From Acidimicrobiia bacterium (lineage in GTDB: Bacteria > Actinomycetota > Acidimicrobiia > Spongiisociales > SHLN01), in the NCBI GenBank assembly GCA_041567895.1, contig JBFGAX010000002.1, forward strand, positions 26,152-90,151: a DNA stretch of 64,000 nucleotides. The letters run 5' to 3'. The notes under the pieces are model-generated. The model was given only the letters and a program-made list of their open reading frames with translations, was not told where the DNA came from and searched no databases. The translations under genes were made by a program, and so were the position numbers. Positions 32,778 through 47,373 of this stretch are shown here, piece after piece. Each line of letters begins with the position of its first letter. Within the stretch, counting starts at the first letter, position 1.

Positions 32778-34793
32778 TCAGTCGAGCTGGGCGGCGAGGA
32801 TCTTCGGATCCGACACCGGCGCCTGACAAGCGAACTGACGGCAAACATACGCCAGCGCTCCATCGTCGGGTTGTCCCTTGCCTGCGAGAAGGGGAACGAT
32901 CCTCTCATCTTCGTCGCTCCTCCGAAGCGCCAGCACCACGTTCGGTCGGAATCTCTGCCATATGACGTCGGACAGGGGACGCGTCGGAGATCCGGTGATT
33001 GCAACCTCGAGGTTGTCGTCGTCGACCGTGTACTGAACGGCCAGGAGGTGTCCCACGGCCGTCGGATGCCGATTCATCAATTCCGCCCCGGCCCGCAAGA
33101 TTGCATCCTGGGCAACCAGCCGGTCAGATCTTCCGGACAGCAAATACGAGATGTGAAGCGCTTCGGCTGCGAGGCTGTTGCCTGATGCCGAGGGGTTGTC
33201 CATGGCATCGGTCGGCCGTGTTATGAGCTCTTCCGCGTCGGAACCGGTTGCATAGAACCCGGCGTCGTCACGGAAGAGGCGCAGCATGTCGTCTATGAGC
33301 GTTTCGGCCTCCATGTACCAGGTCGTGTTACCGGTTGCCTGATAGAGCGTCAACAAGCCGAGGGCGTAACCGCCGTAGTCCTCCAGAACAGCGAGCGGTC
33401 CCGGAGTTCCCCGGCGCCACGTTCGGTAGAGCCTCCCATCCGCCCGACGACAATGTTCCAGTATGAATGTGGCGTTACGTTCAGCGGCCGCGAGGTAGTC
33501 GGGTTTGTTCAGCACTGCGCCTGCTTCAGCCAGAGCCCGGATGGCCAAGCCGTTCCACGCCACCACCACCTTGTCGTCCAGGCCGGGTCGCTGACGCCGG
33601 CTGCGGGCAGCAAGAAGGGCCTGCTTTGCTTCGGTGATGATGGCATCGATCTCGTCGGTGGAAAGGCCGGCAGTGGTTGCGAGGTCTTCGCTCGCGACAG
33701 CCCGATGGAGAATGTTGCTCCCCTCGAAATTTCCTTCGGGACTGACCCCGAAGTAGCCGGCCATGAGGTCGGTGTTATCTCGCACGATATCGGCGAATTC
33801 GGTCGCCGTGAACACGTAGAACTTTCCCTCCTCACCCTCTGAATCGGCGTCCTCTGACGTCGCGAAACCGCCACCCGGTAATCCAAGGTCCTGCAGGATG
33901 TATTCGAGCGTCTCCTGTGCGACCCGAAGAAAGTCCTGGCGGTCGACGACCTGGCCTGCCCTGAGATACAGGCGCGCGAGATTGGCGTTGTCGTACAGCA
34001 TCTTTTCAAAATGCGGCACGAGCCAGATCCGATCAACGGCATAGCGCGCAAATCCTCCGCCGAGATGATCGTAGATACCGCCATCGGCCATTTTTTCGAG
34101 CGTCAGTGTCAGGGCGTTCCATGCTTCGGGCGCCCACTCCTTTGATCCGGCTCGCAGCAGGAACTCGAGGTTGGGGGGCTGCGGGAATTTGGGAGCGCCT
34201 CCGAATCCGCCATAGGTATGGTCCAGATTCTCGAGATGGGTCCGGTAGGCCCTCTCGAGCGCGGATGGATCGACGAGGCCGACGCTTGGCGAGACGGCGG
34301 TTCCAACGGCAGCCGTCAAACTTGCTGCCTGGTCCTCGAGGTCACCGCGACGGTTTTCCCACGCCTCGGCGACACTCGCCAGAACGCGGGGGAAGCCGGC
34401 GTGACCGGGTCGATCTTCGGGCGGGTAATACGTGCCTGCGAAGAAGGGTTTCCCGTCGGGAGTCGCAAAGACTGTCATCGGCCAGCCTCCGTGCCCGGCA
34501 AGCGCCTGCAGCGCGGTCATGTAGATGGCGTCGATGTCGGGACGTTCTTCACGATCTACTTTGATATTCACGAACCAACGGTTCATCAGTTCGGCGATGG
34601 TCGGGTTCTCGAACGACTCGCGCTCCATGACATGACACCAATGACAGGCTGCGTAGCCGACTGAGAGCAGAATCGGACGATCCTCTTGTTTCGCGCGATC
34701 GAGTGCCTCCGAGCCCCATGGGTACCAGTCGACGGGGTTGTCTTTGTGTTGAAGCAAATAGGGTGAGGATTCGTGTGCGAGGCGATTTGACAT
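32778..34793 (-). CDS. Thioredoxin-domain protein (DUF255/YyaL family, N-terminal Trx fold + six-hairpin glycosidase-like fold)
   Basis: N-terminus ...SPYLLQHKDNPVDWYPWG...SVGYAACHWCHVM conserved in the YyaL/SPATA20 family. Confidence 0.8.
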   Translation of the reverse strand: MSNRLAHESSPYLLQHKDNPVDWYPWGSEALDRAKQEDRPILLSVGYAACHWCHVMERESFENPTIAELMNRWFVNIKVDREERPDIDAIYMTALQALAGHGGWPMTVFATPDGKPFFAGTYYPPEDRPGHAGFPRVLASVAEAWENRRGDLEDQAASLTAAVGTAVSPSVGLVDPSALERAYRTHLENLDHTYGGFGGAPKFPQPPNLEFLLRAGSKEWAPEAWNALTLTLEKMADGGIYDHLGGGFARYAVDRIWLVPHFEKMLYDNANLARLYLRAGQVVDRQDFLRVAQETLEYILQDLGLPGGGFATSEDADSEGEEGKFYVFTATEFADIVRDNTDLMAGYFGVSPEGNFEGSNILHRAVASEDLATTAGLSTDEIDAIITEAKQALLAARSRRQRPGLDDKVVVAWNGLAIRALAEAGAVLNKPDYLAAAERNATFILEHCRRADGRLYRTWRRGTPGPLAVLEDYGGYALGLLTLYQATGNTTWYMEAETLIDDMLRLFRDDAGFYATGSDAEELITRPTDAMDNPSASGNSLAAEALHISYLLSGRSDRLVAQDAILRAGAELMNRHPTAVGHLLAVQYTVDDDNLEVAITGSPTRPLSDVIWQRFRPNVVLALRRSDEDERIVPLLAGKGQPDDGALAYVCRQFACQAPVSDPKILAAQLD

Positions 34794-35045
34794 CGGACTT
34801 CCAGGGTGGGAAAACCAAGACTATGGTTTGTCGGCGTCACATACGAAGGCAATCCGCAGCTGAATGAGGAACATCTGCGGACCCCCCTGGGGAGGTTGCT
34901 TCGGTTGGTCTCTGGCCTGAGCTGGAAAGCGAACAACCTGAAGGGGCCTTCACAAGATGGCGATCGTGTGGCATAGTGAAAAGCCGAGGCTGGACTTCCC
35001 CGCAGGTTCAACCTGGCACCATCAGGCTGAGGAGGATGAAGCCGT

Positions 35046-36254
35046 ATGGCGAGTAGAACGCTGAGCTCTGCGACGAAAACCGCGGCTAAAAAGCCCAAAT
35101 CCACGGAGGGCGGCCCCGCCGGGAAGACCAACGGCAGCTCAACCAATGGCGCCCCAAACGGCAGCAGTGGGAACGCCAAATCCCGAACCCAGGGCTCCAA
35201 CGGTGCAGGAGCCAATGGATCGGGAGTAAACGGTGGACGGGCGAAGAATGGAGGCCGTACGAAGCTGGCCAGGTCGTCGCTTGCCAACCCGCCGCTCGGA
35301 AAGCCGCCGGTGTCCAAGAATGAGAGCAAACTCACGGATGATCGGGGACGCCTCACAACCGATCTCGTAAGCCAGTACCTCACCGCAATCGGCGAGTACG
35401 ACCTTCTCACCGCTGAGCTCGAAGTTGAATTCGCTCAGAAGATCGAAGCCGGACAAACTGCGGCGGACCGCCTCGAATCGAACGAATTCAAAGGCAAGAA
35501 GGAAGAAGTCGAACTGCGTCGGCTGGTCCGCCTCGGCGCACACGCCAAGTCGGACTTCCTCACGGCCAACCTGCGACTTGTCGTCGCAAACGCGAGAAGA
35601 TACGCAAACACATCCGGCATCGACTTTCTCGACCTGATTCAGGAAGGCAACCTCGGTCTCATCCGCGCCGTGGAAAAGTTCGATTGGCGAAAAGGCTTCA
35701 AGTTCTCGACGTACGCCACGTGGTGGATCCGTCAGGCGATTACGAGGGCAATCGCAGACAAATCTCGCACCGTACGCATCCCTGTTCACCTCCACGACAC
35801 CCTGGCAGCGGTCCGTGCTGCTCAGGCCAGCTTGAAAGCCGAGTACGGGCGTGACCCCAATCCGGCCGAGATAGCCGAAGAAGCAGGCGTTACGGTCGAC
35901 AAAGTCGAGTTGGCTCTGGCAGTCGCCGACACGGTCTCTCTCGAGCAACCGGTCGGCGAAGATGGTGCACAGCTCGGTGATTTCATTGAGGACCTGGATG
36001 CTGTCGATCCGATGCGGGCGACTGAAGAAATGGACATTGCGAGCAATCTCCGCAAGTCGATTGGTCGCCTCCCCGAACGGGAAGGAAAGATTCTCGCCCT
36101 TCGATATGGATTCCACGACGGCGTGCCCCGCACGCTCGAAGAAATCGGCGAGGAATTCAACCTGACTCGTGAGCGGATCCGTCAGCTCGAAAAGCTCGCG
36201 CTCTGCCGGCTTCGTCATCCGAGCTTCGGTATTCGGGAACAGGATCTGGTTTAG
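35046..36254 (+). CDS. RNA polymerase principal/principal-like sigma-70 factor
   Basis: Regions 1.2, 2 ([31 protein letters not shown]), 3 and 4 ([18 protein letters not shown]) preceded by a low-complexity N/G/K-rich N-terminus. Confidence 0.85.
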
Positions 36255-36265
36255 ATCTACCGGTT

Positions 36266-37477
36266 CTAGACGCCCGCTCTCAGAGCATCCACCGGTTCGA
36301 GTGATGCTGCGCGGAGGCTCGGGTAGACGCCTGCTATGAGACCAACTGCCGCGCCGACCCCAGGAGCGGCGAGCGGAACCCATGCATCGAGAACGGGAGT
36401 CCACTGGTTGTAGGCAGAGGCTCCGACGATTGCCAGCACTCCTGCTGAAGCGCCGATGACGCCGCCGATCAGACCCATGAGAAGGCTCTCGAACAGGAAC
36501 TGGCGAGCGATATGTCGGCGCCCGGCACCCAGAGCCCGCCTGAGGCCGATCTCCCCGATTCGTTCGATGACCGATACCAGAACCACATTTGCGATTCCGA
36601 TCGCGCCGACGAGCAACGTGATGCCGCCCAGAACGAGGAACAATGAGTTGACGTCTTCCTCGACCACCTGGCGGACTTCCCGGGGATCGCGAGCAGTTCT
36701 CGCTTCGAGCAAATCCGGGTTATTCGGCGCCAGGGCGATGGGCGCCTGGCGCGCTATCAGTTGATTTGCCCCGATGACGGTGTCAACGTGGACTTCGGCC
36801 GGGGCTCCGAGATCGTACAGTTCTCGTGCGGTACCGTCCGGAATCACCACAGCTGACAGCAATGACGGCTCCCTGGCCACATCGTCGATGATGCCGATAA
36901 CCGAGAATATGCGTTCTCCGATCTTGATCGCAGGTTGCTGATCGACCCTCGTCAGATTCAACCGGTTCGCTACACCCGGCCCGATGACGGCGACCGGATC
37001 CGCCCGGTTGCTGTGGCCCTCGTCGAAGAAACGGCCGGTTGCAATCGTCCCGCGGACGGACGCGAGGAGATCCGCAGAGGCCGCATACACACTGAAGCTG
37101 AATTCGGTTTGCCGAAGCGGGTCGTTGAACGGAACCGCCGATATCAGGCCGTCGACCGGTACCTGGCTCAGGGTCGCTGCGGCCGCGACCCCATTCAGCC
37201 TGGAAAGTCGGGCACCTGCGTCCCATGGAATCACACTCTGACGTCGTGCACCCGGTTGCGAAACCGGCTCTATCAGTACTTCGGTCTGAGCAAGCGCATC
37301 AAACCGTGTCACGATCTGATTTCCGGCAGTCTTCGCGATGCCGAGGGTTGCGACAAGAGTCCCGACTCCGAGCGCGGTCCCAAGAATCGTCAGTATCGCG
37401 CGTCCTGGACGCGAAAACAGACCGGCAATCGATTCGCCTACCAGGTCGACAAAGGAAAAACGTGAACCGGCGATCAT
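36266..37477 (-). CDS. ABC transporter permease, MacB/FtsX-like
   Basis: N-terminal TM, large extracytoplasmic domain, C-terminal FtsX 3-TM bundle. Confidence 0.8.
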   Translation of the reverse strand: MIAGSRFSFVDLVGESIAGLFSRPGRAILTILGTALGVGTLVATLGIAKTAGNQIVTRFDALAQTEVLIEPVSQPGARRQSVIPWDAGARLSRLNGVAAAATLSQVPVDGLISAVPFNDPLRQTEFSFSVYAASADLLASVRGTIATGRFFDEGHSNRADPVAVIGPGVANRLNLTRVDQQPAIKIGERIFSVIGIIDDVAREPSLLSAVVIPDGTARELYDLGAPAEVHVDTVIGANQLIARQAPIALAPNNPDLLEARTARDPREVRQVVEEDVNSLFLVLGGITLLVGAIGIANVVLVSVIERIGEIGLRRALGAGRRHIARQFLFESLLMGLIGGVIGASAGVLAIVGASAYNQWTPVLDAWVPLAAPGVGAAVGLIAGVYPSLRAASLEPVDALRAGV

Positions 37478-38190
37478 GCGTACTCCGTCAGGAGCCCATC
37501 GATGATGTTGACGGTTCTCGGAGCCCTCGCTGACACAGCTTCGTCGTGGGTGATGACCACCAGCGTGAGTCCGTCAACTCGATGAAGGTCCTCGAAAAGT
37601 TCCATGATCGATTCCGTTGTTGCCGAGTCGAGGTTCCCCGTCGGTTCGTCGCACAGAAGCACGCTCGGCGAATGTGCGATCGCTCTCGCGATTGCGACCC
37701 GTTGGCGTTCGCCGCCGGAAAGGCGATCGGGTCGGAAATCGATCCGGTGCCCAAGGCCGACACGTTCGAGGGCGGCGATCGCCCGGGGCTTGCGTTCGGC
37801 GCGCGGGATTCTGTTGTAGATCTGGCCTACGACGACGTTGTCGAGGACGGTGCGGGTATTCAGCAGGTGAAATGCCTGGAAAACGAATCCGATCCGTTGG
37901 CCTCTCACCGACGCTCGCCTGCGATCACCCAAATCGGACGTATCGATCCCGTCGAGGAGATATGTTCCGCTCGTCGGCCGGTCGAGCAGGCCGAGCAGGT
38001 TCAGCAACGTTGATTTGCCGGACCCGCTCGGTCCCGAAATAGAAACGTATTCGCCTTCAGCGATGGCGAGGTTGACGTCTCTGAGAGCATGTACCGGTGG
38101 GGTGGTGTCAAAAACCCGAGATACGTCGACGAGCTCTACGACGGGTTGATCCGGACCGACCGTGACGCTCGTCGGGGCTGGGAGGGTCAT
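37474..38190 (-). CDS. ABC transporter ATP-binding protein (MacB/LolD-type)
   Basis: Walker A GPSGSGKST, signature LSGGERQRVAIARA, Walker B LLCDEPTGNLD; overlaps the permease start by 4 nt. Confidence 0.9.
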   Translation of the reverse strand: MTLPAPTSVTVGPDQPVVELVDVSRVFDTTPPVHALRDVNLAIAEGEYVSISGPSGSGKSTLLNLLGLLDRPTSGTYLLDGIDTSDLGDRRRASVRGQRIGFVFQAFHLLNTRTVLDNVVVGQIYNRIPRAERKPRAIAALERVGLGHRIDFRPDRLSGGERQRVAIARAIAHSPSVLLCDEPTGNLDSATTESIMELFEDLHRVDGLTLVVITHDEAVSARAPRTVNIIDGLLTEYA

Positions 38191-39686
38191 CGTCCCACGA
38201 CAACCTGGTCGCCCTCGGCGAGTTCTCCATCAATCGGCGAAACTTCTGCTGTTCCCTCGGTTGTGAGCCCAACATCGACCTTCACGAACCGGGTTGTGCC
38301 ATCCTGGTTCTCGACCTCCACAATCGAGTCTCCATCGGCGGCGAGCGACAAGGCGGCAAGCGGTACAGCCAGCACCCTTCCCCCGGAGGAGATGACCGGA
38401 ATCGTCAGGCGCACGGAAACGTTGCGCAAATTGTCGAACTCCTCTTCCGTTGCGTCGATTGGCTCGACTTCGAAGTAATACCTCGTTGCGTCAACGCCGT
38501 TGGTTCCTGACTCGTCGGCCACGAAACTCAACACGCCATCGATTGTTTCACCGGTGTCACGGTTCTCGATCTCGACAGAGTCGCCTTCGGTCACGAGCGT
38601 CCAGCGATCCCGGGGGAGAGAACCGGTGATGACGAGATTCTGTCCGGTAACGGTCATGACAACTCCCTGCGCAAAATCGCCCCGCGCCACGGGAACGGTA
38701 TCAATCCGGCCAGGGAGACCATCAATGAAAACGATTTCGCTCAGCGGGACAGAGACACCGGTCGTGTTGCGTAGCCGGGCGAGCGTCTTGTTGGCTTCAG
38801 TGCGGCTTCTGATAGCGAGGTCGAGTGCCTCAACCAGCTGTTCGCGCTCTGGCTCGATCGCAGCCGCAGCGGCTGCCTTGGCTGCTTCAAAGCCGTTGCT
38901 CGTTGCTTCGACCTGCTGCGATGCTTCGTCAACCGCGGCCTGTAGCAGGGCCAGCTCGGTCGGACCGGTACCGGGCGGTGCGGCCGCCAATGCCTGCTCG
39001 GCTGACGCCTGAGCTGCCTGCGCGGCGGCGAAAGCCGCATAAGCAGCAATCACACCCTCGTCGAGCAGGATCGAGTCGTCGAGATCAGAAATGGCCTGGC
39101 GAGCGTCAACTACTGCGTCGTGAGCATCGGAGGCCGCAAGCTGAGCACTCTCGATGGCATCGATCTGTGACTCACCGGGTTGGGTTGCATCGAAACCGCG
39201 GGACGCGTAAAAATCGGTGACGGCGCCCTGGGTGCGCGGACCAAAAACGCCGTCTATGGGTCCCGGATCAAATCCGAGCCTGGCCAAGGACTCCTGGAGT
39301 TGGACGACATCGGAGCCTTCGGTGGCGGGGATGATCGGTCGCCACATCGGCAGATCCCCGTCGAAAACGAAGAGAGGGCGGCCGTTGACAACCAGGGCAA
39401 CGTCACCCTCGTTGATCTCGGTGCCCCGCTCGGGTGCGACTTCGATGACACCCTCCGCCGTGATGCTCACGGCGACAGGTTCTTCGAATCGGCTCGTCCC
39501 GGAGGTGATGACAGCATCCTCCAACTCGATGAACTCGACGGGCACGGTTATGAGCGAAGGTTCCGGGGGAGCGGTTTCCGCCTGTATTTCGGCAGGAGAT
39601 CGTATGCGCGATGCGAAAGCCCAGGCGACTGCCGCCGCAGCTATCGCAGCGACGACCACGAGTATCAGAACTCGACCTGGTCGCAT
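38187..39686 (-). CDS. Membrane-fusion (HlyD-like) periplasmic adaptor with peptidoglycan-binding domain
   Basis: N-terminal TM, PG_binding_1-like segment (VVQLQESLARLGFDPGPIDGVFGPRTQGAV), long Ala-rich coiled coil, C-terminal beta-barrel; overlaps the ABC ATPase start by 4 nt. Confidence 0.65.
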   Translation of the reverse strand: MRPGRVLILVVVAAIAAAAVAWAFASRIRSPAEIQAETAPPEPSLITVPVEFIELEDAVITSGTSRFEEPVAVSITAEGVIEVAPERGTEINEGDVALVVNGRPLFVFDGDLPMWRPIIPATEGSDVVQLQESLARLGFDPGPIDGVFGPRTQGAVTDFYASRGFDATQPGESQIDAIESAQLAASDAHDAVVDARQAISDLDDSILLDEGVIAAYAAFAAAQAAQASAEQALAAAPPGTGPTELALLQAAVDEASQQVEATSNGFEAAKAAAAAAIEPEREQLVEALDLAIRSRTEANKTLARLRNTTGVSVPLSEIVFIDGLPGRIDTVPVARGDFAQGVVMTVTGQNLVITGSLPRDRWTLVTEGDSVEIENRDTGETIDGVLSFVADESGTNGVDATRYYFEVEPIDATEEEFDNLRNVSVRLTIPVISSGGRVLAVPLAALSLAADGDSIVEVENQDGTTRFVKVDVGLTTEGTAEVSPIDGELAEGDQVVVGR

Positions 39687-39791
39687 GAAACTCCTCGTAG
39701 ATCTGATGTGTCTTGCTCTGTTGTGACGTTGTTCAGCCTCTGGACGTTCCTCATTCTGTCCTAGCGCCGGCGCAGACGGGCGACAATCGCA

Positions 39792-40733
39792 TCACCCGTC
39801 CGTGGCGGCGTTGCCACCAACGACGCTGTCGAGAAGTTCACGGTTCTCCTCGATGAACAGTGGTTCGAGTTCCTCTCGAACTTCTTGCTCAACCTCGTTG
39901 ACGTGTAGATCTCGACAGTCCTGATCGGCATTGGCAACGGTGATTTCTTCTGCCGCCAGGGCCTCGAGTCCGCTCGTGTCGAGGTTGGCGAAGCCGATGC
40001 TGCCGGGAGACGTGAGATCTTCGCCGGATGCAAGCAACGCGGAGAAGAGCTCCTGCTGGGCCAGGGCGGTGAATTCTTGCTCGGGTTGGCTGAGGGTGGT
40101 GTATGTGTATCCGGCCTCTGTCATGCATGTCGCCCAATCGACGGTGACATCGATGATGCGGGGATCAGCGTCGAACTGTGCTTGAAGATCCTCGAGCTTC
40201 GACTGGAGATCAAAAAGAACTTGAAAATCCCCTACAACCGACTGGGTCGCCTCGATGAGACAGCCCTCGGTGGGTATGAACTGGTCCGAGAGTTGCTCTT
40301 CGTCCAGATCCGGACCGTAGAGGGCGGTGTCGTAGGCGGCCTGTTCTTCGGGGCTCAGGGCGTCGTAGTACGGCGCATTCGGATCATCGGGTGTCTCCTG
40401 CGCGATGAACGGGGCCTCGAGCAAGACAGGAGCACCTCCATATCCGTACTGTCTTCGGAACTCCGCCGGATCGGTTGGAAACTCGTCGTCGTCGAACGTG
40501 AAGCCGGCCAGGGTTGCCGCCTGATATTCGAAGCCCTCCTGCGCCATGCACGCAACGGTGGCCTCCTCGATGAGACGATTCTGTTCTTCCTGGCTTCCGA
40601 ATCCAATGGCGCCGAAATAGTCGTCAAGCGTTTCGGGCGCAGGCATGACTTCCGACTCACTGCTACCACACGCCGAAGTTATCAGGGCGACGAAGGCGAA
40701 CAGGACGACTGCCGTGACGTGGCGAAGATTCAT
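39792..40733 (-). CDS. Hypothetical acidic lipoprotein
   Basis: Signal peptide with lipobox ITSACG; highly acidic mature protein; same strand and operon position as the ABC system. Confidence 0.55.
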   Translation of the reverse strand: MNLRHVTAVVLFAFVALITSACGSSESEVMPAPETLDDYFGAIGFGSQEEQNRLIEEATVACMAQEGFEYQAATLAGFTFDDDEFPTDPAEFRRQYGYGGAPVLLEAPFIAQETPDDPNAPYYDALSPEEQAAYDTALYGPDLDEEQLSDQFIPTEGCLIEATQSVVGDFQVLFDLQSKLEDLQAQFDADPRIIDVTVDWATCMTEAGYTYTTLSQPEQEFTALAQQELFSALLASGEDLTSPGSIGFANLDTSGLEALAAEEITVANADQDCRDLHVNEVEQEVREELEPLFIEENRELLDSVVGGNAATDG

Positions 40734-40769
40734 AGGGAGGTATTCAACTTTGTTCGCCGGTCTATCGGG

Positions 40770-43121
40770 TCACACAGGGATGTAAACCACGGCAATCTCG
40801 TCTACTGAGATGTCGTTCTTTTCCAGGCCCACCTCGACTGTCTCGAGCTCGGCGGCGACGTCCTCCCAGCGGTCCTCGATTTCGGCGACCGCTTCCATCA
40901 GATCCTGTTCCAGATCGAGCACTTCTGCCTCCTTGTCCGCCAGGTTCGACTGCGCGGTCCGCAGCCGTTCGGCCGTACGTTGACTCTGGCCTCGTCGGCG
41001 AGCTGCTCCCGACATCGAACGCTTTCGTCGACCTCCGAGGACCATGCCGAGCAAGTCAGATGCTCCCGATACCAGCTCTTCACGCTTGCGCGTATCGAGG
41101 TCGATCTCCAATTCCTGCATTCTTCGATAGTTGGTGGTGAGTTGATCTTTGGCTCGGTCGATTTTGGTTTCGAAACGCTCCTTGACCTTTGCGATCTCGG
41201 CGTCTGCTGCTTCCTCCGCAGCGCTATCGAGACGTTGTTGAAACTCGTCTTCAGTCTCACCGATTCTCGAATACAGCTTGAGTGTGGGGTTGAACATCAC
41301 AGACACTTCTGCATGCCGATAGAGATGTTCCTTGATCGCCGATTCGGCCGACGTGAAGAATTGGGCAGAATCCAGGGGAGCCTCTGACAACACGTATGTC
41401 GCACCTTCCGGAGGTTCATTGCGAAAGTCGCGTTCGTCGTAGTCGACAGCGACGGCATCTGCAGGATCGAATTGCTCGGTCAAAGGAAAGAAGATCGCTT
41501 CCCATTCCTGGTTGTGGTCCAGATCGGCACGCGTTTCGTCGAAGGTCAGATGAACCCGAACTGCGAGGGCAGGCTGCAGACGCCTGCTTTGCGGGTTGGC
41601 GTTGACTTCGCCCGCCCACGGTGCGGCAGGGTCCAGGTAGTACACGGGCACTCGCGCGATTTTGGGAGCGACGCTGGTTTCGTCATCATCGAGTGTTCGT
41701 GTTTCAGGGGCCACGGTTCCTTGCGGAATCGTCTCTATCGATTGCCGATCATCTGCTGTCAGGACACTGATCTGATCTCTCGTGAGTGGGCCGCGCAAGT
41801 AGGACATCGCCCACCGGGTCGAAAAAACCGACGGAGCGGATTCGTGCGTGTTGTGCAGCAGGAATTGGCGCTTGCCGAGGCCTGACACCATGGCGTTGAT
41901 CGCCTTGATGTCGGTTCCGCCGGCTGCCGACTCGAGGGCCTCCAAAATGCGGGCTTTGTCTCGCTCGGTCTGCAGGCGCCCGATCATCCAGGTTCCGGTA
42001 TTGGACATTGCCTTGTAATCGAGGTCAACCGGATTTTGCGTGCTCAGCACCAGACCAACGCCGAAAGCACGTGCCTGCTTCAGCATTGTCAGGATCGGCT
42101 TTTTCGATGGTGGAGACGCCGTGGGGGGTGCGAAACCGAAAACCTCATCCATGTATATGAGCGCGCGGAGGTCGGAGGCGCCAGACAGGCTGCGCATCCA
42201 GCTCACGACCTTGGACAAAAGGAGGGTAACAACGAATTGCCGTTCGTCATCGTTGAGGTGCGCCAGGTACACGACTGCTGCCCGCGGCTTATCGCCGTCG
42301 TAGAGCATCGATTCGATATCCAGGGGAGGTCCCGTCAACCACGACGCAAATGTCGGCGACGCGACAACCCCATTGAGCTGCATGGCGAGTGCTGTGCGGT
42401 CCTTCTCGGGAAAGAACGCGTCTACCTCGAAGACGCCCAGTTTTCGCAATGGCGGGTTCTGAACCTGACCTATCAGGGTCGCCAGGTCGAGGTCCTGGCC
42501 GTCGCGCCAGGCCTTGGCAACGATATTCGACAACAGGATGTGTTCTCTTCCCGAGACGGGATCCGAATCGACGCCGGCGAGAGTGAGGAGCGACGCGACG
42601 AGGCCGTCGATCTCACCGAGAATGGCTTCGCTCTCGGTCTCCCAACTCAAGTCCGGGGCCCGCAGCGATCCGAGGATGTTCACCGGAATACCGGCGCTCG
42701 AGCCCGGCGTATAAATCGAAACCGGGATGTCGCTGAGCTGTTTGATCCGATCGTGGTCAGGATCCCACGAGCCGACACCCGCTTTCCACATGTCGGATGT
42801 CTTCGCAGCCAGTTCGGAGGTGGTGATGTCATCCTGGCGCGCCTCGTCTTTACTCACCCAGGGTTCGAAGTCGGACGGCTGAAATGCTGGGAAGGTCAGC
42901 GCGAGATTCCCCATGTCGCCCTTGGGGTCGATAGCCAGAACGGGCACGCCGGACAACAGTGCCTCCTCGAGAAGAATGACGCCAAGTCCAGTTTTGCCCG
43001 AGCCTGTCATGCCGACAATGACCCCGTGGGTCGTGAGGTCTGATCGGTCGTACGCGACGCGTTCGCCGGTCGGCTCACCGTCAACCGGATTGATGATGTC
43101 TCCAAGATAAAAGTCGCTCAT
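40770..43121 (-). CDS. HerA-superfamily P-loop NTPase, DUF853 (YjgR-like), with long C-terminal coiled-coil extension
   Basis: Walker A GMTGSGKTG, conserved IDPKGD, Walker B LIYMDEVFGF, STQNPVDLD motif. Start at MSDFYLG (complement ATG 43119-43121), because the longer ORF is a shadow of manA. Confidence 0.7.
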   Translation of the reverse strand: MSDFYLGDIINPVDGEPTGERVAYDRSDLTTHGVIVGMTGSGKTGLGVILLEEALLSGVPVLAIDPKGDMGNLALTFPAFQPSDFEPWVSKDEARQDDITTSELAAKTSDMWKAGVGSWDPDHDRIKQLSDIPVSIYTPGSSAGIPVNILGSLRAPDLSWETESEAILGEIDGLVASLLTLAGVDSDPVSGREHILLSNIVAKAWRDGQDLDLATLIGQVQNPPLRKLGVFEVDAFFPEKDRTALAMQLNGVVASPTFASWLTGPPLDIESMLYDGDKPRAAVVYLAHLNDDERQFVVTLLLSKVVSWMRSLSGASDLRALIYMDEVFGFAPPTASPPSKKPILTMLKQARAFGVGLVLSTQNPVDLDYKAMSNTGTWMIGRLQTERDKARILEALESAAGGTDIKAINAMVSGLGKRQFLLHNTHESAPSVFSTRWAMSYLRGPLTRDQISVLTADDRQSIETIPQGTVAPETRTLDDDETSVAPKIARVPVYYLDPAAPWAGEVNANPQSRRLQPALAVRVHLTFDETRADLDHNQEWEAIFFPLTEQFDPADAVAVDYDERDFRNEPPEGATYVLSEAPLDSAQFFTSAESAIKEHLYRHAEVSVMFNPTLKLYSRIGETEDEFQQRLDSAAEEAADAEIAKVKERFETKIDRAKDQLTTNYRRMQELEIDLDTRKREELVSGASDLLGMVLGGRRKRSMSGAARRRGQSQRTAERLRTAQSNLADKEAEVLDLEQDLMEAVAEIEDRWEDVAAELETVEVGLEKNDISVDEIAVVYIPV

Positions 43122-43302
43122 GGAGAGCGATTGTAAGGTCTCATGAGGGGACACCCCGACCTCGGTGCTTGAATGGGATCCTCGATCTGAAAGGGTCATC
43201 GAAGAACACAGTGAAGAACACAGGTACGCATTCAGGAAGAATGACGGGCATGCCGAATTCGTTGGAGTTCGGTAACGCAAGCCGGTATGTGGGTAGCAGC
43301 GG

Positions 43303-44343
43303 TTGGATATAGACACCACATCCGGTACCGGAGATCTCGATCGACCATATCCGTTGCTTTTTGAACCGATCCTCGTCGACAAAGTCTGGGGCGGCAATCG
43401 ATTGGAGCGGCTGGGCAAGGAGCTGCCGCCCGGGGTGGCAGTCGGTGAATCCTGGGAACTCGCAGACCTCGAAGTCACCAGTCGTGGTGCGGCAGCGGGG
43501 TCGATCATCGGCAATGGCGCACTGGCAGGCAGGCCGATTCGCGAAGCGATCCATCGGTGGGGAGACGCCCTGATGGGTGGTGTGGAACTCGCCGAATGGG
43601 GAGGTTTCCCGGCGTTGGTGAAGTACCTGGATGCCACCCAGCATTTGTCGGTTCAGGTCCACCCCGATGCCGACTATGCGCTGCTCCATGAGGGAGCCGA
43701 TCTCAAATCTGAATGCTGGTATGTGATCGAGGCAGAAGCGGGTGCCACCTTGTATCTAGGTCTGGCCGAAGGCGTTGAGCCTTCTGATTTGATCGAGAGA
43801 GCTCGCACGGGGTCGGTGATCGATCTCCTTCAGGCTCACGAGGCCATTCCCGGGACGTGGTACAACGTCCCGAGCGGCACCGTTCACGCTCTAGGCGCCG
43901 GCGTCCTGGTTGCTGAAATACAGACGGCTTCCGACACGACCTTCCGCGTCTACGACTGGGCAGAAGAATACGGTCGAAGTGGACGAACCCTCCATCTCGA
44001 GGAAGCCGCGCAGTCCATACGCACGGACAGGCCCCCGCCGCCCATGGCACTGGATCCGGTCGCACGCGACGGCGTGGTTGTACGTACGCCCTTCTTCACC
44101 GTGTCCGAATTCCGGATGGAAGCCAGAGAAACCATCGAACCGACCGCGGCCGATGCGGGGTGCAGGATCCTCATGGCCACCTCCGGCTCGGTCGAGGTGC
44201 GAACAGTCGGAAACGACCCTGTGACGCTCTCGTTGGGTGATACGTGTCTCGTGCCAGCCAATTGTCTCTCGGGGCTCGAAGTCGAAGGCATCGAGGACAC
44301 CGTGTTGATCGTCGTCAGGTTCAACGACGGCGATGATCGCTGA
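43303..44343 (+). CDS. manA: Mannose-6-phosphate isomerase, class I
   Basis: YPLLFEPILVDKVWGG N-terminal PMI type I signature and cupin core with His/Glu metal ligands; TTG start. Confidence 0.8.
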   Translation: MDIDTTSGTGDLDRPYPLLFEPILVDKVWGGNRLERLGKELPPGVAVGESWELADLEVTSRGAAAGSIIGNGALAGRPIREAIHRWGDALMGGVELAEWGGFPALVKYLDATQHLSVQVHPDADYALLHEGADLKSECWYVIEAEAGATLYLGLAEGVEPSDLIERARTGSVIDLLQAHEAIPGTWYNVPSGTVHALGAGVLVAEIQTASDTTFRVYDWAEEYGRSGRTLHLEEAAQSIRTDRPPPPMALDPVARDGVVVRTPFFTVSEFRMEARETIEPTAADAGCRILMATSGSVEVRTVGNDPVTLSLGDTCLVPANCLSGLEVEGIEDTVLIVVRFNDGDDR

Positions 44344-44464
44344 ATACTTTCGACATTCAGGGAACTTTTCTGTCGCCGTTGGGTCATATCTGTGACTTCA
44401 TCGTCATGTTCTGCCGATCCGGCAGACAACACACATAGGCCTCCTCTGGAGGCCAACCGACACC

Positions 44465-44508
44465 GCAGCAGGGCTCTCTCGCAAGAGGGAGCCCTGCTGT
44501 TTGGTTTG
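44465..44508 (+). terminator. Intrinsic terminator-like hairpin
   Basis: CAGCAGGGCTCTCTC-gcaa-GAGGGAGCCCTGCTG followed by TTTGGTTTG; lies 120 nt after the manA stop and is preceded by two further hairpins. Confidence 0.5.
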
Positions 44509-44599
44509 TACCGACCAGCGTTTGGATCCCCCGATGCGTGAGGTTGGATCGTCCGATGCTCATTCTCTTGACGATTGATCGGCCACCTATTCTTCGCGG

Positions 44600-46036
44600 A
44601 TGTTTGATCTGGCAACAGCCGCAGTCGAAGGAGCGCTTGCTGCCGGCGCCACATATGCAGACGCACGAGCGATGATCACCCGGGAAGAGCGGATCGATTG
44701 TCTCAATACGGTTGTGGAGTCGCTCGACCAAACCGAAAACGCCGGTGTAGGTGTGCGAGCTCTCATTGGATCTTCCTGGGGTTTCTACGCAACGTCTGAG
44801 ACCACCGAGGCTGCTGCCCGATCTGCCGGCGAGCAGGCTTCGGCGATAGCCAGGGCGTCGGCAATGGTGCCGGGACCCCACATCGAACTCGCCGACGTTC
44901 TCGTAAGCGAGGCTCACTGGGAGAACGAGGTCGAAGAAGACCCGTTCTCGATCCCGCTTTCTGCCAAGGCCGATCTCCTCGTGGCAGCGACTGCCACGAT
45001 GGCTGAGACTGCAGGCGTTGCACTGGCCAGGGGAGAAATGGGGTTTTTCCGTACAGAGAAGTACTTCGTCTCAAGCCAGGGCCATCGGATTTCTCAGATA
45101 ATCACCGAATCGGGTGGAGGGATTTCTGCGACGGCGGTAGGTGCGAGCGAAACCCAACGGCGGTCTTATCCGCAAGCCTTCGGGCAATACGAGACATCGG
45201 GTTTCGAGACAATCCGCCGGTTCGATTTCGTCGAGAACGCTTCCAGGATTGCCGAAGAATCGGTTCAATTGCTTGCTGCTCCGCAATGCCCGCAGGGCAC
45301 GAGCGATCTCATTCTCGGATCGAGCCAGCTGGCTCTGCAGATTCACGAATCGGTGGGCCATGCCATCGAGCTCGATCGCATTCTCGGCTGGGAGGCGGCG
45401 TTCGCCGGAACTTCGTTCCTGGACCTCGAGGACCTCGGATCACTCCAGTACGGGTCGACCCTCATGAACATCACCGCAGACGCCACATTGGTCGGAGCAC
45501 TCGGTTCGTTTGGATTCGACGACGAGGGTACGCCGGCTCAGCGGGTGGATATCGTCAAGGAGGGCGTCTGGGTCGGAGTTTTGACCGGCCGTGATTCGGC
45601 GTCGATTGCCGGATTGCCGCCAGGTGGCATGGTGCGCGGGGATGGGTATAACCGGCTGCCAATGGTGAGGATGACCAACGTGGGTTTGCTGCCAGGCCCC
45701 TCTTCGCTCGAAGAGATCATCTCCGAGACCAGCGACGGCGTGTTCATGTCAGAAAATCGGTCGTGGTCGATCGACGATCGGAGGCTCAACTTTCAGTTCG
45801 GATGTGAAATTGGATGGGAAGTCAAGAATGGCAAGCTGGGTCGCATGGTTCGGAACCCGACGTACACCGGAATCACACCTCAGTTCTGGGGGTCGCTCGA
45901 CATGCTCGCCGGTGAGTCGGAAATCACTTACTGGGGTACTCCGAATTGTGGCAAGGGTCAGCCGATGCAGGTGGGCCACACCGGGCATCCGGCCGCACCT
46001 GCCCGTTTTCGCGATGTCAGGATCGGTGTTCGCTGA
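44600..46036 (+). CDS. tldD: TldD-family metalloprotease
   Basis: HESVGHAIE HExxxH motif and conserved TldD scaffold. Confidence 0.85.
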   Translation: MFDLATAAVEGALAAGATYADARAMITREERIDCLNTVVESLDQTENAGVGVRALIGSSWGFYATSETTEAAARSAGEQASAIARASAMVPGPHIELADVLVSEAHWENEVEEDPFSIPLSAKADLLVAATATMAETAGVALARGEMGFFRTEKYFVSSQGHRISQIITESGGGISATAVGASETQRRSYPQAFGQYETSGFETIRRFDFVENASRIAEESVQLLAAPQCPQGTSDLILGSSQLALQIHESVGHAIELDRILGWEAAFAGTSFLDLEDLGSLQYGSTLMNITADATLVGALGSFGFDDEGTPAQRVDIVKEGVWVGVLTGRDSASIAGLPPGGMVRGDGYNRLPMVRMTNVGLLPGPSSLEEIISETSDGVFMSENRSWSIDDRRLNFQFGCEIGWEVKNGKLGRMVRNPTYTGITPQFWGSLDMLAGESEITYWGTPNCGKGQPMQVGHTGHPAAPARFRDVRIGVR

Positions 46037-47373
46037 TGAACGAAAACAGCATTGACGAAATCGCGGAATCGGTGCTCCACCGGGTCGGTGATCGGGGGGA
46101 GGCGGCCGTGTCGGTGCAGTCGGGAACCTCCGACCTCACGAGGTTCGCCAATTCGTTCATCCATCAAAATGTTGCCGAGCGGCGCCTGCAGGTCGCCTTA
46201 GAGGTCGCGTTCGAGAATCGAGCTGCTTCGGCCTCGATTGATCGAGTCGACTCGGACAGCCTGGACCGTCTCGTCGAGCGCACCGTGCACGCTGCTCGCC
46301 TCCATACGGCTGACACCGACTGGCCAGGCCTCATCGGGCCGACCCCGATCCCGGAGGCTGCCAATTGGGACCCGGCCGTCGCCAACGCCACGCCCGACGA
46401 CCGGGCGACGCAGGTCGCCGGGTTTGTTGGAGCGGCAGCGGGGATGCGAGCAGCAGGATTCTTCGACACCGAGGCCTATGACGTGGTGTACGCCAATAAC
46501 AACGGACAGCATGCGCGTGGACGGTTCACCAGAACCTCGCTGGACGGGATTCACCAGACAGACTCTTCGGCGGGCAGAGGGCACGCGACGTCTGCACGTT
46601 GGGCCGATATCGATGCTATCGCGGTCGGCGCCGCAGCGGCCAAAACTGCGGCCATGTCGCAAAACCCCGGTGAACTTGCACCTGGCGAATATGAGGTCGT
46701 GCTGGCGCCCGAATGTGTAGCGACGATCATCGTATTCCTTGCTTTCTACGGCTTCAATGCCAAGGCCGCGATCCAGGGTCAGAGTTTCTTCGAAGCGGGT
46801 GAGATGCAGTTCGATCCACAGATCTCTCTCGTGGACGACGGCACGGATCCACGGGCTATCGGGCTCTTGTTCGACAATCAAGGGGTACCAAAGCGCCGCA
46901 ACACGCTGATCGAACGCGGCGTGAGTCGTTCGTTGAATCACGACCGGAGAACAGCCCCCAAAATGAAAACCTCCTCAACCGGAAACGCGGTCCCCGGGAG
47001 CGCCTCGTTCGGTCCGGTTGCGACCGACCTGTTCCTGGATGCCGGGCAGGCTGCCCCTCTTGACATGATCGCTGCGACCGAAAGAGGTGTGTTTGTCACA
47101 GAATTCAATTATTGCCGGATCCTCGATCCGAAGACCCAGGTGGTCACTGGTCTCACGCGCAATGGCACGTTTTTGATCGAGAATGGCGAGCTGGCCGGTC
47201 CGGTGTCCAACCTTCGATTCACCCAGTCGTTTGTCGACGCACTCCAACCGGGTCAGGTGCTGGCGGTCGGCGACGACGACCGGTTCGCGAGAAACGAGTT
47301 CGCGGACGGCACGACCCATGTCCCGTCTTTGCACCTGGCATCCTGGAACTTCACCGGCAACGCGCAAGGCTGA
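46036..47373 (+). CDS. pmbA: TldE/PmbA-family protein
   Basis: PmbA/TldD-fold paralog lacking HExxxH; ATG overlaps the tldD stop (TGATG). Confidence 0.8.
   Translation: MNENSIDEIAESVLHRVGDRGEAAVSVQSGTSDLTRFANSFIHQNVAERRLQVALEVAFENRAASASIDRVDSDSLDRLVERTVHAARLHTADTDWPGLIGPTPIPEAANWDPAVANATPDDRATQVAGFVGAAAGMRAAGFFDTEAYDVVYANNNGQHARGRFTRTSLDGIHQTDSSAGRGHATSARWADIDAIAVGAAAAKTAAMSQNPGELAPGEYEVVLAPECVATIIVFLAFYGFNAKAAIQGQSFFEAGEMQFDPQISLVDDGTDPRAIGLLFDNQGVPKRRNTLIERGVSRSLNHDRRTAPKMKTSSTGNAVPGSASFGPVATDLFLDAGQAAPLDMIAATERGVFVTEFNYCRILDPKTQVVTGLTRNGTFLIENGELAGPVSNLRFTQSFVDALQPGQVLAVGDDDRFARNEFADGTTHVPSLHLASWNFTGNAQG

Follow-up and report, generated by a model that had tools for sequence, protein, structure and literature searches.

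Do five co-directional genes, led by a HerA-like ATPase and closed by a MacB-type transporter, encode a single machine? This question is raised by positions 36266-43121 of a 64,000-nucleotide window of an Acidimicrobiia bacterium (GenBank assembly GCA_041567895.1, contig JBFGAX010000002.1, positions 26,152 to 90,151), where an earlier sequence-only reading had proposed that the ATPase leads a lipoprotein, an adaptor, and a MacB-type ATP-binding cassette (ABC) exporter as one envelope-associated module. All five open reading frames (ORFs) were reproduced on the minus strand at exactly the coordinates given by that reading, together with the 4-nucleotide overlaps (permease and ABC ATPase at 37474-37477, ABC ATPase and adaptor at 38187-38190) and the gaps of 105 nucleotides between adaptor and lipoprotein and 36 nucleotides between lipoprotein and HerA-like ATPase. 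The single machine fared less well. The locus probably holds two independent units, a four-gene MacB-type cassette and the ATPase beside it, whose co-directional placement next to each other is limited to a single narrow lineage of Acidimicrobiia. The earlier reading as a whole is partly supported. The features concerned are as follows.

36266..37477, minus strand: MacB-type (type VII ABC) permease, 403 amino acids, with MacB_PCD and FtsX domains

37474..38190, minus strand: ABC nucleotide-binding subunit of the MacB/LolD type, 238 amino acids, with an ABC_tran domain

38187..39686, minus strand: predicted membrane-anchored periplasmic adaptor resembling membrane fusion proteins (MFPs), with a PG_binding_1 domain, 499 amino acids

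39792..40733, minus strand: predicted lipoprotein, first gene of the four-gene cassette, 313 amino acids

40734..40769, minus strand: spacer of 36 nucleotides from the ATPase stop to the lipoprotein start, with TTGAATA at 40741-40747

40770..43121, minus strand: stand-alone cytoplasmic P-loop ATPase of the HerA/FtsK superfamily, outside the cassette, 783 amino acids

About 170 related loci were compared in all. From the side of the ATPase, we took the best 80 genome loci with up to 10 kb on each side and searched them with the window genes using tblastn. A homolog of the lipoprotein or the adaptor was found near the ATPase in none of these 80 loci, and a MacB-like pair in just one (L005), where it is distant and lies 7 kb away. 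Clustering of the neighboring ORFs revealed no partner common to several phyla. Most frequent, in 11 loci, were generic ABC-F-like ATPases; a CBS protein followed with 10 loci and a sigma-70 factor with 9, both of them confined to Acidimicrobiia. Clusters of this size (9-11 of the 80 loci) reflect lineage synteny or generic ABC-F genes.

The reciprocal set consisted of the best 80 metagenome loci from a scan with the lipoprotein profile (27-37% identity), and the ATPase was present in 0 of these 80. The adaptor, ABC ATPase, and permease stood on the same strand in 15 of the 16 lipoprotein loci that had at least 4.5 kb on both sides. Eleven of the 15 complete metagenome cassettes have the gene order of the window, and in others the lipoprotein gene comes last or in the middle. 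The order accessory, adaptor, nucleotide-binding domain (NBD), permease is that of the window, L081, L084, L086-L088, and L090. Lipoproteins that are only 28-31% identical are still followed directly by a PG_binding_1 protein and then by the ABC ATPase and MacB_PCD/FtsX permease genes in L086, L087, and L088, in unrelated surroundings without the ATPase; L086 (302-12402) carries two complete cassettes flanking an extracytoplasmic function (ECF) sigma gene and L087 carries one. Two more cassettes were reached from distant adaptor homologs rather than from the lipoprotein, and in both of them the gene ahead of the adaptor is a member of the lipoprotein family (L090, hhalign 100%, E 9e-54; the Anaerolineae locus L091, in which MacB is fused, hhalign 99.6%, E 7e-24). 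The cassette thus recurs as a unit in Actinomycetota and Chloroflexota. Since the ATPase is absent from the 80 lipoprotein loci and the lipoprotein and adaptor from the 80 ATPase loci, the real unit is four genes, and the five-gene machine is unsupported because the homolog neighborhoods are not syntenic in either direction. The sequence-only reading had itself named loss of synteny among homologs as the outcome that would refute it, and this outcome was obtained: the DUF853-like gene (its label for the ATPase) and the ABC genes are not syntenic beyond close relatives. We consider two points quite likely: the ATPase and the cassette are distinct units, and the cassette belongs to the MacB type.

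A possible route by which the two units became neighbors can be read from the genes around them. In this lineage the ATPase is part of a conserved housekeeping backbone (TldD/PmbA, PMI, ATPase, sigma-70, DsbH), whose other members flank the five genes in the window.

35046..36254, plus strand: principal-type sigma-70 factor with Sigma70 regions 1.2, 2, 3, and 4, convergent with the cassette

32778-36254: backbone flank, a DsbH-like thioredoxin and the principal sigma-70 factor

43303-47373: backbone flank on the other side, a PMI-like cupin protein and a TldD/PmbA pair

The sigma-70 factor of the neighbor clusters is a homolog of this plus-strand gene, and in related Acidimicrobiia without the cassette such homologs (82-89% identity) lie convergently downstream of the ATPase. 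The order TldD/PmbA, (PMI,) ATPase, sigma-70, DsbH is kept in L083, L084, and L001; L025 keeps ATPase, sigma-70, and DsbH in order, and L054 the adjacency of ATPase and sigma-70. Just the window, L081/L082, and L084 carry the cassette between ATPase and sigma-70, and the five-gene arrangement is found only where the ATPase is ~80% identical or more (L081/L082 at 80%; L084). In L083, with an ATPase 67% identical, an aminotransferase, a Macro protein, and a CBS protein, unrelated to the cassette and convergent, occupy its place, and L001 and L025 have short ATPase-sigma-70 intervals of ~0.4-0.9 kb. The simplest history would be acquisition of the cassette at the ATPase/sigma-70 spot in the ancestor of a narrow Acidimicrobiia clade. 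A search for insertion scars around the cassette found only chance-like short repeats, no integrase, and no shift in G+C content, which is ~60% for the window; the nearest public proteins come from metagenome-assembled genomes of Acidimicrobiia.

The spacer between ATPase and lipoprotein differs in length among these loci (36 nucleotides in the window, 51 in L081/L082, 113 in L084) and has otherwise diverged. The TTGAATA element stands 7-9 nucleotides before the lipoprotein ATG in the window, L081, L082, and L084, and could act as a promoter or regulatory site specific to the cassette. A promoter scan returned no sigma-70-like sites (2.0 expected by chance), and a terminator scan returned none at the 36- or the 105-nucleotide junction and no stable hairpin in the 36-nucleotide gap. 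Co-transcription of the ATPase and the cassette is possible in the window lineage, and shared function would not follow from it. A separate 10-bp hairpin at ~39775-39800 on the minus strand extends across the stop codon of the lipoprotein gene; lacking a U tract and lacking conservation in L081 or L084, it probably does not act as a terminator.

The transporter genes of the cassette bear out the MacB-type assignment made by the sequence-only reading. In Pfam, the permease matches MacB_PCD (1.8e-15, residues 28-221) and FtsX (4.7e-18, residues 282-395). It has transmembrane (TM)-like segments at residues 27-48, 275-308, 327-355, and 366-385, with an extracytoplasmic domain of ~225 amino acids between TM1 and TM2, and across TM2-TM4 it is 38% identical to residues 510-645 of Escherichia coli MacB (E 2e-17). 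The ABC ATPase (ABC_tran, 1.2e-33) shares 44% identity with the NBD of E. coli MacB (E 5e-55). In NCBIfam it scores best against LolD (4.3e-63) and MacB (1.1e-60), in each case under the equivalog cut-off. Among the NCBIfam models, both proteins are nearer to MacB/LolD than to FtsE/FtsX. With four TM segments, a large outside domain, and a cognate NBD, the two proteins form a MacB-type (type VII) transporter.

The adaptor has a single N-terminal TM segment (residues 1-28) followed by the peptidoglycan-binding domain that had been read from the sequence (PG_binding_1, PF01471, residues 124-164, 38.5 bits against a cut-off of 23, E 1.3e-09). This domain was present in six of the six adaptors checked and in essentially all of the 120 relatives listed, and peptidoglycan binding is predicted from it. 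The membrane-fusion identity proposed for the adaptor is invisible to Pfam and came to light by profile comparison: with hhalign, a 35-sequence adaptor profile aligned residues 351-499 to residues 223-367 of E. coli MacA (probability 90.5%, E 1.4e-6), an alignment that covers the MacA beta-barrel and membrane-proximal domains. Profile searches against the PDB gave weak matches to SilB (0.037) and ZneB (0.066), and there, as in Pfam for six adaptors, only PG-binding domains were significant; a few adaptor relatives carry PF25967 or a JGI AcrA-like label. Residues ~170-310 are a helical, Ala-rich, length-variable region, and the relatives range from 467 to 834 amino acids. Taken together, the N-terminal anchor and the C-terminal barrel and membrane-proximal homology place the adaptor among the predicted MFPs. 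No hydrolase domain was detected in the cassette proteins using Pfam and NCBIfam.

The fourth protein has a hydrophobic segment at residues 3-26 and a lipobox, LITSAC, whose Cys22 is unchanged in all 30 homologs. This signal peptide and the invariant lipobox cysteine are those of a bacterial lipoprotein, and lipidation is predicted. Beyond the signal peptide, a soluble all-helical domain is predicted. The same 30 homologs share four more invariant cysteines (62, 158, 203, and 273) and the motifs CMxxEGFEY, YGYG, DPN, ALYG, and WxxCMxxAGY. The motif CM..G[FY].[FY] occurs twice in the protein, and hhalign of the two halves aligns only this 18-residue motif (probability 66%), which is weakly suggestive of an internal duplication. 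The earlier description of an acidic lipoprotein agrees with the lipobox and the isoelectric point (pI 4.05), but acidity is not peculiar to this protein. The adaptor (pI 4.08) and the ATPase (pI 4.60) are strongly acidic as well, and the property seems to be general to the proteome of this organism and not confined to the lipoprotein.

We found no Pfam or NCBIfam family for the lipoprotein, and Pfam was also empty for the 30 aligned members; a search of the PDB gave no sequence matches and the protein has no solved structural relative. The family is large. Among 1.84 billion representatives, its profile matched 10,429 clusters with E<=1e-3, of which 6,312 reach E<=1e-10, and the named members, including those of Microbacterium sp. 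NC79 and Propionicimonas (RefSeq, sp.), are all annotated as 'hypothetical protein'. The lipoprotein diverges faster than the transporter: at the same loci its identity is ~30%, that of the ABC ATPase 58-65%, and that of the permease 58-60%. Tandem lipoprotein paralogs lie beside a single transporter in L088 (6952-8819), L112, L120, and L163. Its place in the operon, its fast divergence, and its tandem copies fit an accessory or specificity factor and a cargo equally well.

Regulatory genes adjoin some cassettes. Of the 80 metagenome loci, roughly 9-12 (among them L103, L105-L107, L112, L124, L129, L131, and L138) have an OmpR-type response regulator and a histidine kinase next to the cassette, as does L091 (9870-11944); in the window no OmpR-type or ECF regulator lies beside it. 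The two-component and ECF neighbors hint weakly at a connection with envelope stress.

How does this cassette compare with known systems? YknWXYZ (Bacillus subtilis/B. amyloliquefaciens) and AS-48EFGH (Enterococcus) are MacB systems of Gram-positive bacteria built from four components, whose co-transcribed genes run accessory, adaptor, NBD, permease, and the YknX adaptor binds peptidoglycan (PMC5985334). The cassette shares this gene order, a monoderm setting, and the lack of an outer-membrane duct, and on its sequence we regard it as a putative monoderm MacAB-like pump with YknWXYZ gene order; the likeness is one of organization. It differs from both systems in its hosts (Actinomycetota and Chloroflexota), in having no adjoining toxin or bacteriocin locus, and in its accessory, a helical lipoprotein with a soluble domain, whereas AS-48E is polytopic with four predicted TM helices. 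Because the lipoprotein has only a signal-peptide segment and a soluble helical domain and belongs to no Pfam family, it is at most a functional analogue of YknW/AS-48E. Unlike YknWXYZ, the cassette has a discrete PG_binding_1 domain on its adaptor.

The comparison with MacAB-TolC of E. coli rests on the NBD (44% identical), permease TM2-TM4 (38%), the MacB_PCD and FtsX domains, and the MacA-like C-terminus of the adaptor. In contrast to that system, the ABC ATPase and permease of the cassette are separate polypeptides (fused in L091), there is no TolC-like gene, and the adaptor with PG_binding_1 and the conserved lipoprotein are added. Spr0693-0694-0695 of Streptococcus pneumoniae, a MacAB-like system with solved structures that has been linked to resistance against antimicrobial peptides and antibiotics (PMC5768738; PMC5985334), is likewise monoderm and combines an adaptor with a separate ABC ATPase and a MacB-type permease. 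Compared by description, it has three genes, no lipoprotein partner, and no reported PG_binding_1 on the adaptor. Relative to the known four-component systems, the cassette is new in the discrete PG_binding_1 domain of its adaptor and in the kind of accessory it has; our literature search returned no description of a PG-binding adaptor with MacB. The undescribed module of the sequence-only reading survives in altered form: lipoprotein, PG-binding adaptor, and MacB are conserved together in a form absent from the sources searched, and the module has four genes, not five.

The analysis establishes domain content, topology, MacA/MacB homology, and synteny; the functional steps, the type of substrate, and the role of the lipoprotein that follow are modeled on the established mechanism of the MacB family. 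Members of the MacB family work by mechanotransmission, without transport across the membrane (PMC5985334). The ABC ATPase would dimerize and hydrolyze ATP in the cytoplasm, and the permease, by analogy with that family (PMC5985334), would relay the movement through its long TM1 and TM2 helices to the extracytoplasmic domain with no substrate passing through the membrane. Held by its one TM anchor, the adaptor would touch the permease with its beta-barrel and membrane-proximal domains, while its helical region would reach into the wall zone and be tethered there by PG_binding_1. Material from the outer leaflet or the inner-wall zone would then be expelled outward along the adaptor, the likely cargo being an amphipathic peptide, a lipid-linked compound, or a xenobiotic. 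The lipoprotein, on the outer leaflet, may serve as the dedicated fourth component, at YknW's position in the operon.

Several points weigh against this reading of the locus. On the side of the two separate units, the ATPase stop and lipoprotein start are 36 nucleotides apart with no recognizable terminator, so that read-through is possible; the five-gene arrangement has been kept across at least ~20% protein divergence; and both synteny samples are the best 80 matches of larger scans, not a census. On the side of the pump, the homology of the adaptor to MacA is limited to the C-terminal 150 residues, and six adaptor members gave no Pfam HlyD/MFP or Biotin_lipoyl match at E<=1. The role of the lipoprotein is argued from operon position only, and the cassette has no known substrate, regulator, or phenotype.

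Adaptor-containing MacB systems are poorly understood in bacteria without an outer membrane, and a 2018 review of MacB raises the question of the adaptor's purpose in such systems. The cassette is a widespread natural variant in which the adaptor has an explicit wall-binding domain, and its fourth component is a lipoprotein family of more than 10,000 representative clusters with no Pfam model and no solved structural relative. Named isolates carry members of this family, so the role of the lipoprotein and the substrate are probably accessible to genetics.

A bolder account of the cassette can be offered tentatively: that it is a widespread, undescribed envelope machine of monoderm Actinomycetota and Chloroflexota in which a MacB mechanotransducer acts on or through its dedicated lipoprotein, whose fold has no solved relative. 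It could, for example, extract cargo (a lipoprotein or a lipid-linked compound) and pass it over the wall zone, or the lipoprotein could be a specificity or receiver module in a conduit that spans the wall. If true, this would make the cassette a distinct class of MacB system and not another drug or peptide efflux pump.

We think it unlikely that the cassette is instead an FtsEX-like mechanotransducer for wall remodeling, with the adaptor switching on or positioning a wall-active effector, possibly together with the lipoprotein. FtsEX drives coiled-coil hydrolase activators without transport (PMC5985334), and the FtsX and MacB_PCD architecture of the permease, the adaptor's PG_binding_1 domain and long Ala-rich helical region (with relatives of 467-834 amino acids), and the lack of a known substrate would suit such a switch. 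The C-terminus of the adaptor, however, is homologous to MacA and not to partners of the EnvC, PcsB, or RipC type, none of the cassette proteins has a detected hydrolase domain, the ABC ATPase and permease fall nearer to the MacB/LolD models, and the gene order agrees with that of YknWXYZ-type pumps.

Slightly less probable still is that the lipoprotein is itself the cargo, the cassette being a Lol- or Aat-like extractor that passes its own lipoprotein through the adaptor into the wall. The cargo of Aat is lipid-modified. MacB-type transporters do handle lipoproteins (LolCDE), and Aat exports dispersin (PMC5985334); here, genes for the two occur together almost without exception, and the lipoprotein evolves faster than the transporter and is occasionally duplicated in tandem before one transporter. 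Yet neither a LolA/LolB-like chaperone or acceptor nor an AatD-like acyltransferase was seen in the cassettes, and fast evolution and duplication would suit an exposed accessory or specificity factor just as well.

That all five genes are one machine, with the HerA-like ATPase delivering substrate to the exporter or powering it, is highly improbable: its co-directional genes, 36-nucleotide gap, junction without a terminator-like site, and retention in L081/L082 and L084 are outweighed by the two reciprocal counts of zero, the disappearance of the cassette at 67% ATPase identity, the cassette's own ABC ATPase, the absence of a membrane segment from the HerA-like protein, and a spacer of 36-113 nucleotides with a conserved pre-lipoprotein motif that hints at separate control, and, because MacB-type permeases load from the extracytoplasmic side (PMC5985334), a cytoplasmic motor feeding the extruder, as the sequence-only reading had envisaged, has no obvious place.

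With two separate units as the preferred reading, a false lead is removed: what looked like an envelope exporter driven by HerA is a pair of units that became neighbors in a single lineage. The ATPase then becomes a second, independent item of note, an orphan family. The Pfam search suggested for it earlier returned DUF87 and HerA_C at ~1e-6 (HerA_C at 28.7 bits against a gathering threshold of 22). The label YjgR/DUF853, however, was rejected. The HerA_C (PF05872) match is limited to profile positions 21-65 of 502, that is, 45 residues around Walker A, and the solved YjgR structure (11kk) matches residues 31-74 only (E 0.0057); there is no match along the length of the profile, and length and C-terminal architecture differ. 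What the ATPase shares with YjgR/DUF853 is membership of one P-loop superfamily, with HerA_C above its gathering threshold.

The HerA/FtsK superfamily placement is borne out by an additional-strand, catalytic-glutamate (ASCE) P-loop core, by Walker A and B, and by a HerA/VirB4-like fold, at sequence identities of 12-19% to HerA and VirB4/TrwB-type ATPases. Walker A lies at residues 37-44, LIYMDE at ~321-326, and TQNP at 361. A topology scan of the sequence found no membrane segment, and the protein is soluble. In an AlphaFold2 (AF2) model (pLDDT 75), an N-terminal core (1-440) is joined by a disordered linker (442-476) to a C-terminal module that consists of a beta-rich domain (~480-620), a helical hairpin (624-757), and terminal strands (760-782). 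The ~300-residue coiled-coil C-terminus proposed earlier is borne out only for the hairpin, the remainder being beta-rich domain and strands in the model. Since just two short strands (4-10 and 17-24) precede the P-loop, a HerA-ATP synthase (HAS) barrel is not demonstrated. No PDB sequence match was found for the C-terminal 306 residues. The protein is 783 amino acids long, one fewer than the 784 first given, and an alternative start at GTG 43154, as in the public gene call, would yield 794. An ORF of 955 amino acids at 40770-43637 on the minus strand was set aside as an artefact: it extends upstream into the divergent PMI-like gene, and the homologs start near ATG 43121.

The ATPase family comprises at least 8000 scored proteins; the 120 listed are of ~780-880 amino acids, apart from a few truncated ones. 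At least 595 stretches in species-representative genomes encode a relative, the best 80 of which come from Acidimicrobiia, Thermoleophilia, Euzebya, several classes of Chloroflexota, Gemmatimonadota, Planctomycetaceae, Myxococcales, WOR-3, Chlorobiaceae, a Bathyarchaeia bin, and contigs binned as Gammaproteobacteria. Homologs also occur on metagenome-assembled contigs that are assigned to the genera Euzebya and Ardenticatena. Nearly all complete copies align across residues 1-783, and therefore the C-terminal module defines the family. The family is nearly absent from plasmids.

Three assignments to better-known types of ATPase were considered and rejected. A role in a mobile element or conjugation was dismissed on a single weak match in 72,556 plasmids and the absence of an integrase or repeats. 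As for defense, the PADLOC search that the sequence-only reading had recommended gave generic P-loop matches only; the mad8 hit (3e-15) is of this kind, the cassette's ABC ATPase matches the same model, and the neighbors are housekeeping genes. HerA proper is likewise rejected, there being no NurA, Sir2, DUF4297, TdpB, or other conserved neighbor in the 80 loci. HerA is known with NurA and with Sir2, DUF4297, or Tdp partners; compared with it and with VirB4/TrwB, our ATPase lacks a nuclease, Sir2, or secretion-system partner in those loci, has a housekeeping setting rather than a defense island or mobile element, and has a C-terminal module of ~300 amino acids without a PDB sequence match. A literature search returned no description of this family. 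The HerA-like ATPase of ~790 amino acids is an orphan family, chromosomal and spread across many phyla, with its own C-terminal module and no conserved partner.

Three smaller observations concern individual gene calls and contigs. On the opposite strand of the sigma-70 gene, a 421-amino-acid ORF (35139-36404, minus strand) is an antisense artefact. ATPase homologs 50-62% identical to ours lie on contigs binned as Gammaproteobacteria, Granulosicoccaceae, or Chromatiaceae (L004, L014, L026, L034, and L052), which could be horizontal transfer or mis-binning. In L084 (5509-7887), the ATPase gene is called as three ORFs of 249, 180, and 381 amino acids, and the tblastn pieces run on across frames at 74-92% identity; a pseudogene is possible, and assembly frameshifts are the likeliest explanation.

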